The translations under genes and the position numbers were made by a program. DNA of 64,000 bases, taken from positions 372,001 to 436,000 of the forward strand of contig JALDZX010000014.1 in NCBI GenBank assembly GCA_022813865.1, read 5' to 3'. The stretch's first letter is position 1, and each line of letters opens with the position of its first letter. Below, piece after piece: positions 39,561 through 58,456 of the stretch. Origin of the DNA: Xylographa opegraphella. Lineage: Eukaryota. The notes below the pieces were generated by a model. The model made no database searches and had not been told where the DNA came from. It saw only the letters and a list, made by a program, of their open reading frames with translations.

Positions 39561-40207
39561 ATACACTCGGACCCTCCTCATCCCACGTACGGGATTTTGA
39601 CACCGAAGATGAATAATCGTTCATCACAATCGGATTCTACGGGCCATAATTGTGTTTAGTTAATCGCGCCCTTTATCTGTAAACCCTGAAACATGTATGT
39701 TCGGAGAAAAGAATCGTCCATAGAAAACTCTGAAGCACCTCATTTTCGTGAAATGTAACATATAGGGAGAAGAGTTGGATACTAAAATTGGGGTAAAGTA
39801 GAGGTAGCGTGGGTGGAAAGGCTCCGCCATTTTGTCTTGCTGAGGGAAGTTTGCTGCAACGGTCGAGGGCGGCGAGCATAGCGCCATGGCTCAAAGCCGG
39901 ATCGCGAGATTGGGTAATATGATTGAAAGAGTTACAAGGCACCTTTCAAAAAGGGATTACCTCGAAAGTATCTCGCATGATTGTGAGACATCGAATTTCT
40001 GTAGCACAAACACCCGAGCATGTAGTTATTAACGCAGTGCTTCGACGCCTTATTATGCCATCCTGCTGTGCATTTTCATAACCGTGTTGTGACAAACAGT
40101 TAGTTGGGGTCAAAGGGGGGGCCGCATATTGTCCTACCCATTGAGCACAGATATTTTCCCGATTATTGACAATATCCAGATGCTCTGTATTATGACTGTT
40201 CCTTGGA

Positions 40208-52054: not shown

Positions 52055-53321
52055 CTATGCGGCGCGAACGCGTTGCGCCAGGTCCGCCCACCTCCCATGC
52101 CTCAATGGATCTAGGGCTTGGAGTGAGACTACCCAGGCGCATAGACTTTCGAAGAGGACAGGCCAAGAGCCAGAAGTGCTTTTATGCAGCATGGCAAGCT
52201 GTAATAATGCCTGATATATCCATTTACAGTCCCGGTCATCCTCGAGCATCTCCAATAGTTTGTCCGTTTCCGACTTGATGTAGGTCAGCCGTTCATACTG
52301 AGAGAGATTGGGAGCCATTCCGCGGGAGGCAAAAGCAGGATCAAACGTGCACATGAGATTCTGGTGGTAGAACCACAGCGATTGATCTCTTGAATCCGTG
52401 TAGAGACCTTCTTGGATCAGGATAAGTTCTACAAGACAGATCAGCTTCCTGTCAATCGGAAATGTAAAGCAGAAGTAGGCTACCCTCGTCTAGCATTTGG
52501 CGCCTCTCATCGTCACAGGCAGCTAGTTCATCGAGCCGTCTGATGATCAAGACGCTGCGGTTGTGCCAGGCCGAGAAATTAGACATGCTCGTTCTTATCA
52601 TTCTGGTTGTGTAGTCGAACTCGCTCTTCACCATACTAGGTCCTGCACTTTTATCACAGAGTTCAGGCCGTTCTAATGCAGCTATCACAATGCGGCGGTA
52701 TCCCCAACCATGGAAGTTACGGCTGTCAAGAGACAGCATCTTGCCGACCAGACGCAGTTCGCCTTCCCATATTTTACGTACCGCTGGCGCATGGAGATCA
52801 CTAGAAGCTTGCTGGAGGAGCCAGAGACGGTGGTTCCAGATCCAATAACATTTGGGGAACTTGCGAAGCAGCGAGAAGACAAAGTTGAGGTCCGACGTGA
52901 TGAGCTCGAGAATACCTTTGTTCAGTTCACGCGGCGGTTCTTCATCACGCCGTGTATCAAGGCTTGAGTCACGAGGAGATTGAGGAGCGATCCGATGTCG
53001 AAGTATTCGGCGGCGGTGATTCCATATCGTGTAGTACTCCGGGTTGAGTGTTAGAAGTTTTGACGTAAGCTGAAGAGCTTCAACCGTGTAGCTCTCGGCC
53101 TGAATCTAATAGCTATGAGAAGTGCAGTGCCAGGAGATTTCGTCGAAGGACCACAACCTTTGCTTCTACGAGATCGACAAGCTCCTTGTACTCTCCGATC
53201 TTCTTCAGCTCGCGTTCTCTCACTTGCTCCGTTCGAGGCTCAATCTCGGTGGTCCGGGGAATGCCATGCTACAATGTTCAACAGGTGTACATGACGGAGT
53301 TTTGAATGATCATACGCTCAT
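52055..53321 (-). CDS. BET4: Rab geranylgeranyltransferase type II alpha subunit; 6-nt first coding exon (ATGAGC) and three introns
   Basis: MS|HGIPR start and PFTA repeats NPEYYTIWNHRR, PKCYWIWNHR, DSRNFHGWGYRR, SNFSAWHNRS, DQSLWFYH. Confidence 0.92.
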
Positions 53322-53786: not shown

Positions 53787-56356
53787 ATGGCTCGACACTG
53801 CACGTCCATGGAGAATATCCCAATCTCTACAGACTTTTGCCTCTATAGTATTTCACATCCGTCTGTACCAAGACGCTCCTCTTCTTATCATTATCGCGTG
53901 GAGGGAAAACCTTCTAATTATCCAAATCTCGCCCAACATGAACAGAACCCCTTTCCTTCTCCACCTTCCGAGCAAAACCTCACCCCACATGTCCAGGCTA
54001 GCAAAGCCAGAGATGCTTTTCCATTTCCCACACAACCTGGGAAGATAGGACCCTCCACCCCTGAACGAAATGCCCATCAGGGAAGACGGCCGCATCATGC
54101 CAAACGACAATGTACTGGCGTGCAAAGTTCATACCTTACACCGCCGTCGTCTCCAGATCGATTCATTCGCACGCGCCTCCCAGCAGATTCACATAGAAAG
54201 TGCTACAGCCTTAACAAGCCTCCAGATCAACTGTCCTATGCTGAGAGGCTCCTACGCCACAATTCTGCGGCCCCAGATCCATTCAGTCCTCGCAGCCGGC
54301 ATCAAGCTACAGAAAGCGTCAGATTTCCGCGCGACGGTTCCACAGCCAGAACGCCCCATTCTGCCAGCGCCGATGTTGCCATACCAATACCGGGTCTACG
54401 GTCAGGTAGTGTAGGGTTACAACCTCGCCGACCTAGCGCTGGTGCAGTCTGGAATGTTGGTGGTACAATGTTAGGTCCTACGACAGGGGTGCCGAATGGA
54501 CGTGGAGGCTTGCTTGGTAGCGGGACAAATGCACCTATGTATACGTCAACCTTCTTCGAACAGGAGACGGAACACCAGAGCCTTGAACGTTTCGAAGGGA
54601 GGGTTGCTGCCGCGTTGGATATTGATCAGACCAGCAGAATTTTCGGGATATCTCAACCTCCTGATCGCGGTAGGAGCAGAACTTTATCCCGTACTGGTGC
54701 TGAGCGCGTTCAATTGCCAACGACGATTTGGCAGAATGGGCAATGGGTGAACGACGGCCATTCTCCGAGTGAGTTGTCCCAAACACAAAAGTGTGTCCCA
54801 ACCCGAGCCTCTTGTGATAAGCATGCGAGTCCTACACATTGAAACTGCAACCACTGACGTTGAAATTGACAGCCCGAAGCAAAGAGTTCAAGACCGAATG
54901 TCGGGCAGTCCCGTCCACGCCATTTAGATAAGTATATTCTTATATTGTCATCCATATAATTCTGATATCAACTACAGTTTTAGATGCACCCCAACTAAGA
55001 GACGATTTCTACTGTTCGGTCCTTGCATACTGTCATACAAGTCGTACTCTTGCGGTCGGCCTGCACAACCGTGTGTATTTGTGGTCTGAGAAGACTGGTG
55101 TACAATATCCCCGTATGGAAGAGAACCGTCAAAGTACTTACGTTACATCTTTGTCCTTTTCTTCGACGCAAGGTGGAAGCAGTATCCTGGCAATCGGTCG
55201 TAACAGCGGTCAAATAAGTCTGTGGAGCTTATTCGACGAGAGCGATCGATTTCAATCACAGCAACCCAATGCTGTTGCATGCTTGTCATTCAAGCCGGTA
55301 ACTACTCGTAGAGAATCTGAACATCTTGGCACCATTGTTAGCACCGAAGAGCTCCTGGTCGGCGACGAGGTTGGCGTAGTGTATTATTACTCTGTCGAAT
55401 GGGGGAGTGCGCCAGGAGACCAGAGATGGCATGGAGCAATGCATCTGATGGCCAAGATCGATATTCATACACAGCAGATCTGCGGACTGGCATGGTCGCC
55501 CGAGGGTGATTACTTCGCAACCGGAGGCAACGATAATATCTGTTGTCTATTTGACACCAGAGATATACTCACTCCACCACCTGTACCGCTTATGAGCGGC
55601 CCTCTCAACGCGCTCATGACAGGCTTTATTCCTGACTTCATACCAAACGCTCCAGCGCACGAAACCTTGGGAAGCATGCTGGGTGGTGGCAATCACCATC
55701 GCTATGCGCTGCCTGATGGTATTATAAGACCCTTTCGAAGCACATTTTTACCGGGTCAGGATGGCTTGATGCTCAACATTACCGACGGTCGCCAACGACA
55801 TAAATGGCTCCACAGTGCCGCCGTAAAAGCCATCGCTTTCTGTCCCTGGCAACGGGGACTCGTGGCGACAGGTGGAGGCTCCAACGACCGAGCTATTCAC
55901 TTTTTCCACGCTCACTCCGGTGCGTGCCTTGCCACGATCACCGTCCAGGCGCAAGTGACCTCCCTGATATGGTCGACAACCCGACGGGAGATCGCTGCCA
56001 CCTTTGGCTATGCACAACCAGAACATCCGTACCGAATCGCAGTATTCTCGTGGCCTGACTGTCGACAGGTGGTGGCGATACCGTGGGTCGGAGACATCCG
56101 AGCCCTCTATGCAATCCCATATCCTGGCGGGCCCAACGAGGTGACGAGGCAGAGAATCGAGGGCGGGCGATGGTGGTCGCGGACCGCCGAAGAAGGTTGC
56201 ATCGTCGTGGCATCGTCGGATGAGTCGGTCAAGTTCCATGAGGTTTGGAGCGAGGCGCGGAAGTCCACAGGCGGTCACGCTGGGCTCTTGGGCGGGAGTG
56301 ATATTCTGGAGAGCCTGGAAGGGATCGATAAGGATGGTGTCGACGTTATTCGGTAG
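53787..56356 (+). CDS. AMA1: Cdc20/Fizzy-family WD40 APC/C activator, Ama1-like; GT-AG intron 54769-54872 and AT-AC intron 54928-54975
   Basis: C-box (PDRFI), RAVPSTPFR|VLDAPQLRDDFY, HTQQICGLAWS, GGNDN, HSAAVKAIAFCPW, ATGGGSNDR and a C-terminal IR tail. The Ama1 subfamily call is inferred from the divergent inserts. Confidence 0.85.
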
Positions 56357-56868: not shown

Positions 56869-58456
56869 TCAGGAGACGCCTTTTTGCCGTTTCCCTCCGA
56901 TTCGGGGACTAGGCTTTACTTTGGCAACGGTCCCGTTGATGTCGGTACCATTACCCATGTCTTCCGCTTCTATCTTCACGCCTGACGGTCTTCGCCTTTT
57001 GTTGGGCACGCTCGGACTCGCGTTGGCGCTGGTGCCTTGGCTGCCGGTACCTCCACTCGTATTGGTTCCTTGCTGACTTTGCTGGGCTGCCATAGCTGCG
57101 CTGATCGGTGGCTGTTGTTGAAGATGATTTTGAAGGGGATGGCTTTGCATTGCAGGTGACATGTTGGTCGTACCAGGTGAGGCGGTGGTATTCATCGGCA
57201 AGTTCAGATGCGCTCCTGCCGCAGGTGATGCAAACTGATTGGGTCCGTTGTACCCAGGCGTTCGCTGACCAGAAGGCGGCTGAATACCTAGGTTGGAGCC
57301 TTGCTGGTGCATTGCTGGATTGAAATTTATCTGATTCTGCGGAAGATTCTGGATTGAAAGAACCAGCTGCCGGAGAGCATCTGATGGTGACAACTGGAGA
57401 TTCTGCTGCGAGAAATGGAAAAGGTTTTCCATCGACGAGAAGGTCTCGACTAACTACTTTCTTTTAGTCAAGTCCAATATTGCTCTGAAGAAATCTCTTA
57501 CCTCGAGTAAGTTTAATACTGCGTTGGTTACCCCCCAGCTGTTGATGGGAGACCGTGGAGGGCCCACAGGTAACATGTGCTCCTGCGCGGGCTGTAATTG
57601 TTTGTTCATTCTCTGTTGCGTAGCCCGCTTTCCAGCATTTTTCGACATGTTCGGAGATGCTTTTTGCTCCGGTGAATCTGGAACGGCATGTATCTTGGAA
57701 CGCAGGACATATTCCGCATGCTCAAAAACAAGACATTCCATTATTTCGATCTTCCCGTTCTGATTGAACTGGGCTCTAAGATTTCCGGTCGTCATAACCT
57801 GCAAAAGCTTAGTCGGTAACAGAAAGCGGTTAGGTTGTACATCCTTATTACCTGACAGCCGTTTGGAAACCAATAGATAAAGCTAGATTTGACACAATCA
57901 ACAAAGTGGCCACCGTTAGGCAACTCTTTCGATTTCGCATTCTCCATAATCATCTGGAGATTTTGTACTCCACTATCAAAATGCATCCAATAATATCGTG
58001 CAAGAGCAGGAGTTGGAACTTCCCAGGTCTTGTGAGTACCCGGTTTCTCGGAGTCCCACAGCTGTTGCCGTAGGACTCCCGAAGGTGCATAGAAGCGGTC
58101 AACAAAGTTTTGCCAATAGTTGAGATCGTTCGGCTGTTGTTGTCTCCGGGCCTACAAGACACTCGATCAATATACACATTTTATTATTGGATTGAAGTAT
58201 AATGCTTACCGAAAATTGGCTCAAACAATCTCCGAATTGGAGAAGTGTTAGCACAGAGTTCCCTCCAAGATTGTTCTGCATTCGCGGTTGCATCATAGAG
58301 GCTGCAGCTTGTTGTTGAGCAACCTGCATCCGAGCCTGTGCATGTGCCTGGGCCTGGACTTGAGCTTGCCGCTGAACATGCTGTGTCGTTGCATCTTGCT
58401 GTTGCTGTTGCTGTTGCTGTTGTTGCTGTTGCTGTTGTTGCTGTTGCTGTTGCTGC

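Follow-up and report, generated by a model that had tools for sequence, protein, structure and literature searches.

U2-type (type II) AT-AC introns are counted in PMC1557818 at 15 for human, 6 for mouse and 3 for the fly, with human SCN4A and SCN5A and human and fly TAF2 as examples, and the same paper mentions xylanase genes of filamentous fungi as hypothesised cases; in fungal annotations, AT-AC introns are reported to be rare (PMC7072748). An exchange of the first intron base (G1>A) that is rescued by a G>C exchange at the last base is documented for U2-type introns of both yeast and human (PMC1557818 and PMC11585973). The gene for Ama1, which activates the anaphase-promoting complex/cyclosome (APC/C), is itself described as depending on a post-transcriptional step in two fungi: Saccharomyces cerevisiae AMA1 contains one of four meiotic introns that depend on Mer1 (PMC11585973), and Fusarium graminearum FgAMA1 (PSC33) contains a premature stop codon that is corrected by adenosine-to-inosine (A-to-I) editing in the sexual stage, which the authors of that work themselves compare with the yeast AMA1 intron (PMC10776026). 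Here, we analysed a stretch of 64,000 nucleotides (nt) from contig JALDZX010000014.1 of Xylographa opegraphella, which will be referred to as the window and in which all coordinates are counted, and describe a candidate AT-AC intron in its Ama1-like gene. Our literature search brought up no report of AMA1, or an orthologue of it, with an AT-AC intron.

The + strand of the window from 53787 to 56356 holds one Ama1-like gene of the Cdc20/Fizzy family, which is split into three exons, and we consider it likely that the 48 nt at 54928..54975, between the second and third exon, form a true spliceosomal intron, whose excision we infer and which would belong to the rare AT-AC class of U2 type (type II). 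Like the type II introns of human and fly (PMC1557818), this intron has AT-AC ends and a 5′ splice site that is otherwise U2-type, is very rare and has been preserved among orthologues. Unlike them, it is fungal, short (46-53 nt among the distinct AT-AC introns of the orthologues, n = 20), has a CTRAY branch site 10-11 nt from its 3′ end and is known here from genomic sequence; further, it can be traced over three classes of ascomycetes in which GT-AG, AT-AG, AT-AA and intron-less states occur at the same codon. The intron also resembles two yeast cases described in PMC11585973, namely G1>A mutants in which AG>AC acts as a rescue and an AT-AC intron that occurs naturally in RPL30, in the contact between first and last base that it would require and in its proposed use of the major spliceosome, yeast being an organism that lacks a minor one. 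The yeast cases in that account, however, are either mutants or a cryptic intron nested in another intron, whereas the AT-AC intron in AMA1 appears to be the sole route to the conserved protein and to have been kept for a long time.

The first exon (53787..54768) ends with the first base of a split codon and is followed by an ordinary GT-AG intron of 104 nt (54769..54872; GTGAGT...CTGAC...CAG), the junction of which agrees with the intron-free orthologue P0009. The mini-exon that follows (54873..54927, 55 nt) encodes (T)RSKEFKTECRAVPSTPF(R); it ends with CCATTTAG, the last base of which is 54927, and its final two bases are bases 1 and 2 of an Arg codon, so that the AT-AC intron lies between bases 2 and 3 of this codon. 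The third exon (54976..56356) opens with A GTT TTA GAT GCA CCC at 54976, i.e. with base 3 of the split Arg codon, is translated as VLDAPQLRDDFY... until the stop codon TAG at 56354-56356 and encodes the entire WD40 propeller, beginning with VLDAP. The intron itself reads ATAAGT...CTGAT...CTAC: its 5′ splice site (54928..54933) is the U2-type GTAAGT with G1>A, the match to a branch site (CTGAT, 54962..54966) has its branch A at 54965, 10 nt before the intron's 3′ end, and the terminal AC (54974..54975) is preceded by T and thereby conforms to a YAC 3′ splice site. A canonical-looking acceptor, the CAG at 54975..54977, overlaps the AC end.

An earlier note, made from this sequence, had read the donor and branch site as U2-type, and all the bases that it quotes were recovered when we re-read the sequence; ATAAGT and CTGAT stand as described, and the pattern recurs in orthologous introns. 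It had further stated that only the exact removal of 54928-54975 restores the conserved PFR-VLDAP junction, which both a check of the reading frames and a comparison of gene models bear out, and that retention of the intron truncates the protein before the WD40 domain, which agrees with the upstream frame, RSKEFKTECRAVPSTPFR, in which a TAA directly follows PFR. Its description of the CAG at 54975-54977 as out of frame is right with respect to the mini-exon, but it overlooked that the same CAG is in frame with the donor of the first exon at 54769, a junction that skips the mini-exon. We compared four gene models, built from coordinates, with seven reference orthologues from four classes by BLASTP. 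The model in which the AT-AC intron is removed (805 amino acids, with a C-box-like motif, the propeller and an Ile-Arg tail) scored highest against 7/7 references, reaching 803 bits with P0009. The model that skips the mini-exon, in which the donor at 54769 is joined after 54977, is open, with 786 amino acids and 772 bits to P0009, the model that uses a weak GT donor at 54900 is also open, with 795 amino acids and 779 bits, and the model that retains the intron terminates at residue 346. Three of the features that mark a type II AT-AC intron are found here: AT and AC ends at boundaries that restore frame and protein, a 5′ splice site that is U2-type except at +1 (the criterion used in PMC1557818), and conservation among orthologues.

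The bare pattern ATRNGT..CTRAY..YAC is not rare in itself, as a scan of both strands of the 64-kb window gave 2 matches. The other match lies at 40089-40141 on the - strand (ATGGGT...CTAAC...TCAC) and is probably due to chance. The case for the intron is one of exact position and conservation and not of the motif. We also considered intron boundaries shifted by +2 at both ends (AA...AG) and rejected them: the frame is kept, but the dinucleotides are inconsistent among orthologues, and the shift fails for the orthologous loci L026 and L034, in which G is the first base of the exon.

That the gene encodes an Ama1-like activator of the Cdc20 family, as the earlier note had also proposed, is supported by the match of the third exon to the CDC20/Fizzy WD40 family PF24807 (E = 3.6e-63; score of 214.1 bits, cut-off 200) and by matches to proteins of filamentous ascomycetes, several of which (P0040, P0084 and P0111 among them) are named "meiosis-specific APC/C activator protein AMA1" by their sources; the label Ama1, as opposed to Cdc20 or Cdh1, follows these source names. 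The closest named relatives, by identity over the WD40 exon, are Xylographa soralifera (95%), X. bjoerkii (94%), X. trunciseda (92%) and Lambiella insularis (82%), which identifies the source of the window as a lichen-forming, Xylographa-like member of the Lecanoromycetes.

We next consider the same codon position in other ascomycetes. We searched metagenome contigs with a 38-orthologue alignment, kept the best 80 loci from the 298 relatives that this returned and read, in each locus, the DNA upstream of the VLDAP codon. Three loci (L055, L075 and L080) begin inside the WD40 exon and are uninformative; the remaining 77 and the window represent 60 distinct junctions. AT-AC ends were found in 24 of these (the window included) and GT-AG ends in 18, whereas two junctions are AT-AG (L029 and L031), one is AT-AA (L024, identical to L025), 14 have no intron (L074 was judged by eye) and one (L026) lacks upstream DNA and ends in ...TATAC. 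The combinations GT-AC and GT-AA occur in 0/60. All introns share one site, between bases 2 and 3 of the codon (Arg or Lys) in front of VLDAP, and the mini-exon motif VPxxPF[RK], which is conserved in the orthologues, is present in every intron-bearing locus. Collapsing identical introns left 39 distinct ones (20 AT-AC, 16 GT-AG, 2 AT-AG and 1 AT-AA). In the AT-AC introns, A1, T2, G5, T6, A-2 and C-1 are invariant (20/20), and the 5′ splice sites read ATRNGT, namely ATAAGT (6), ATATGT (6), ATGAGT (3), ATACGT (3) and ATAGGT (2). The G at +5 and the T at +6 are thus each present in 20/20 AT-AC introns, compared with 14/16 and 12/16 GT-AG introns; a CTRAY match is found 10-11 nt before the 3′ end in 15/20 AT-AC introns (the other five have near-matches), compared with 10/16 GT-AG introns; and a pyrimidine directly precedes the AC in 19/20. 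The interiors of the AT-AC introns, in contrast, have fully diverged and share nothing with one another. If retained, 17/20 AT-AC introns would meet a stop codon and two would shift the frame. On the sequences compared, the conserved part is the splicing signals alone, and these are of the major-spliceosome type. The stricter +5 and +6 positions and the fixed branch distance suggest a compensation for the weakened +1 position, which would favour an intron that is usable constitutively. The alignment of the intron position across Pezizomycotina, which the earlier note had proposed as a check, gave AT-AC ends that are conserved in three classes and are elsewhere replaced pairwise by GT-AG.

The distribution of these states was examined on a quick maximum-likelihood tree (LG+G4) of the WD40 part of 88 sequences (the distinct loci together with the window and 32 proteins from databases), which is unrooted and was built without an outgroup; the class labels follow the named genera. 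Every DNA locus in the Lecanoromycetes, a clade with a support of 97 that includes the window, is AT-AC. The Dothideomycetes are either AT-AC (L020, L032, L038, L051, L058, L059, L064 and L072) or without the intron, the Eurotiomycetes have no intron, and all loci seen in the Sordariomycetes are GT-AG. The Leotiomycetes are mixed, with AT-AC (L022, L023 and L034), GT-AG (L021 and L027/28), AT-AG, AT-AA and intron-less (L019 and L035) members. Among the intron-bearing rows, the minimum number of changes is four at the first base and four at the last base, and the presence or absence of the intron changed at least six times, so that the 24-to-18 split between AT-AC and GT-AG reflects few events. 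As AT-AC ends occur in three classes, their presence in the common ancestor of these classes is the parsimonious reading of this unrooted tree. On these comparisons, the case for function is made by A1/T2 and A-2/C-1, which are fixed in lineages with saturated intron interiors, and by the fact that GT-AC does not occur, and not by a statistic of covariation.

On the basis of what is established about the biochemistry of splicing, we propose the following mechanism. The major spliceosome would recognise ATAAGT through pairing of U1 and U6 with positions +2 to +6, and CTGAT would be recognised as the branch site. Ligation of the exons would be allowed by a non-Watson-Crick contact between the A at the first and the C at the last position of the intron, which would replace the G-G contact of GT-AG introns. 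Excision would link the 55-nt mini-exon to the WD40 exon, and a retained intron would lead immediately to the TAA. The AT-AC state, which is shared by Lecanoromycetes, Dothideomycetes and Leotiomycetes, is probably old; it would have turned into GT-AG on at least a few occasions, with loss of the intron in other lineages. The ends have most likely been kept because a change at either end alone would harm splicing, and not as a proven regulatory device.

The public gene models give further information on the junction. Sorting 240 database proteins by their junction, we found PF[RK] contiguous with [VI]LDAP in 99 (82 of the 120 longer orthologues among the matches listed), and 29 proteins, two of which are annotated models, that read "...T-VLDAP", as would be expected from an open reading frame (ORF) read through an intron that ends in AC and is followed by A or G. 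Three proteins read "...R-VLDAP" after a sequence other than PF, as would follow from reading through an AG end; 34 models have other junctions, mostly with exon 1 joined directly to [ILVF]LDAP; 14 begin at the motif and 61 begin later. One protein, P0132, contains a whole in-frame intron (PFR-YV...TT-VLDAP), implying an ATAYGT...AC intron of 54 nt. The models of the closest relatives (P0123-P0126, from X. soralifera, X. bjoerkii, X. trunciseda and L. insularis) join exon 1 to [IV]LDAP and lack the mini-exon segment of about 19 residues, and this segment is also missing from many AMA1 models of Pleosporales, Pseudogymnoascus and other lichen fungi. The loss of the mini-exon from these models probably results from predictors that allow GT-AG introns only and use the CAG that overlaps the AC.

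Several observations weigh against the reading of 54928-54975 as an old and conserved AT-AC intron. First, the WD40 tree recovers clades at the level of classes and leaves several forks open, and a sign test for covariation of the two ends is without power, as it has just 2-4 phylogenetically independent pairs. Second, among 242 proteins, none at 93% identity or more forms a pair of a spliced and an AC-ending genomic sequence from one species. Third, skipping of the mini-exon (54769 to 54977) is in frame and could be a real isoform. Fourth, the AT-AG and AT-AA forms show mismatched ends. They belong to one well-supported clade of Leotiomycetes, in which the sister loci L027/28 carry GT-AG introns whose donors (GTAAAA and GTAAAC) are weak, L029 and L031 are AT-AG, and L024 and L025, two contigs with the same intron, are AT-AA. 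The WD40 exons of the AT-AG and AT-AA loci are under strong purifying selection, with ratios of nonsynonymous to synonymous substitution rates (dN/dS) of 0.013-0.034 at a dS above 1.3, and no alternative in-frame junction exists in these loci. By this measure, mismatched ends are long persistent in genes that are clearly kept functional, and the rule that A1 pairs with C is therefore not absolute in these fungi. The AT-AG and AT-AA introns look like a long-lived intermediate between AT-AC and GT-AG. We also considered A-to-I editing of the first intron base, which would make AT-AG canonical. Fungal A-to-I editing prefers a U immediately before the edited A, and this explanation was set aside, as the preceding base is A or G.

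With respect to what the intron does, the alternative that survives best, although we regard it as unlikely, is that it acts as a regulated gate, i.e. that the AT-AC ends are inefficient or depend on a factor of the sexual stage and thereby restrict full-length Ama1 to fruiting-body development. Retained transcripts would stop at the TAA before the propeller, AMA1 is gated post-transcriptionally in two other lineages of ascomycetes (S. cerevisiae and F. graminearum), and the unusual ends persist in three classes, all of which would suit a gate. The intron of S. cerevisiae AMA1 lies at another position in the gene. It is similar in that it interrupts the same member of the family, has to be removed for an active protein and has a non-consensus 5′ splice site, but it is a GU-AG intron with an AYACCCUY enhancer near its 5′ splice site (AMA1/SPO70; PMC11585973), and a Mer1-like enhancer of this kind is found in 0/39 of the distinct introns here, which have no internal motif in common and no conspicuous shared k-mer. 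FgAMA1, as described in PMC10776026, is likewise an orthologue from a filamentous ascomycete that needs a post-transcriptional step for the full-length protein, as we infer for the gene in the window; unlike here, the device is a stop codon and its editing, and the species belongs to the Sordariomycetes, all of whose loci seen here have GT-AG at this position. Against a gate, further, the invariant +5G and +6T and the fixed branch distance point to selection for efficient recognition, and Sordariomycetes, Eurotiomycetes and others manage without AT-AC ends. Since each end depends on the other, the conservation of both needs no regulatory role. A broader form of this idea, which we hold to be slightly more doubtful still, is that AMA1 has repeatedly been put behind a post-transcriptional lock of the sexual phase, by the Mer1 intron in yeast, the edited stop codon in Fusarium and the AT-AC intron elsewhere; such a lock may operate through sexual-stage-dependent ligation in lichen fungi, Dothideomycetes and many Leotiomycetes, and through AT-AG or AT-AA ends in some Leotiomycetes.

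It is considerably less probable that the AT-AC junction is not the main one at all and that most mRNA skips the mini-exon or relies on the weak GT donor at 54900, in which case the mini-exon would be a decaying remnant in this lineage. Both of these junctions leave an open frame (786 and 795 amino acids), and the public models of Xylographa, Lambiella, many Pleosporales and Pseudogymnoascus are built in this way. Both, however, score below the AT-AC model against 7/7 references, the VPxxPF[RK] motif of the mini-exon is conserved in all intron-bearing loci and is contiguous with VLDAP in 99/240 proteins, and models that skip the mini-exon are the expected output of a predictor limited to GT-AG introns.

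A sequencing or assembly error, or a dead gene, is very improbable. Nothing specific speaks for either, beyond the fact that each end base is one nucleotide away from that of a canonical intron, whereas AT and AC recur in 19 other distinct orthologous introns, the three exons are open and the WD40 exon retains its 95% identity to that of X. soralifera. The earlier note had asked for the terminal bases to be confirmed in reads. A second assembly, the Logan contig of the DNA run X1 (word depth of ~165), has identical bases, with 0 differences over 54600-55300; it is not independent, and because X1 may be the source of the window, the agreement argues only against an assembly slip.

A minor-spliceosome (U12-type) AT-AC intron is the least probable alternative, because, although it would share the AT-AC ends and a branch distance of 10-11 nt also suits U12-type introns, the U12 5′ splice site ATATCCTT (ATATCC) and the U12 branch site TCCTTRAY are found in 0/20 AT-AC introns and in 0/39 of all introns, positions +3 and +4 vary as they do in U2-type sites, the GT-AG introns at the same position carry ordinary GTRAGT donors, and U12 components, introns and splicing are reported to be absent from Ascomycota and Pezizomycotina (PMC2846911). 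In an unlikely variant of the U2-type reading, the AT-AC ends may be the fossil of a U12-type intron that outlived the minor spliceosome by moving to the major one.

The remaining features of the gene and its surroundings are as follows. The ATG at 53787 is the earliest in-frame start codon of exon 1, and the true start is uncertain, as alignments with the orthologues begin only near residue 56 of the model. A C-box is defined as DR[FY]IPxR. The window has a C-box-like motif at 54156..54176 (+ strand), DRFIRTR, with Arg in place of the Pro of the consensus DRFIPxR in the alignment of 38 orthologues. At its other end, the protein terminates in ...VIR, the last two residues of which form a C-terminal Ile-Arg (IR) tail (56348..56353, + strand), and the consensus of the alignment ends in ...EVIR. 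Upstream of the gene, an ORF on the - strand (52455-53105) contains four repeats of the protein prenyltransferase alpha-subunit family (PF01239, E = 7e-35). Downstream, three ORFs in different frames of the - strand (56872-58151) each have a match to the LIM-domain-binding protein family (PF01803; best E = 4e-36) and presumably belong to one intron-containing gene with a Gln/Pro-rich tail, which is convergent with the AMA1-like gene and faces its 3′ end.

The U2-type AT-AC introns form a recognised and very rare class, to which the case of AMA1 adds an unusually clear evolutionary series and a consequence for annotation. One codon position at which AT-AC, AT-AG, AT-AA, GT-AG and loss of the intron all occur provides a natural series on how the major spliceosome tolerates non-canonical ends and how such ends are converted. 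For annotation, a simple rule would repair the AMA1 models that lack a conserved segment of 19 residues before the propeller. For regulation, the AMA1 intron is a third candidate for post-transcriptional gating of this activator, beside those of yeast and Fusarium.

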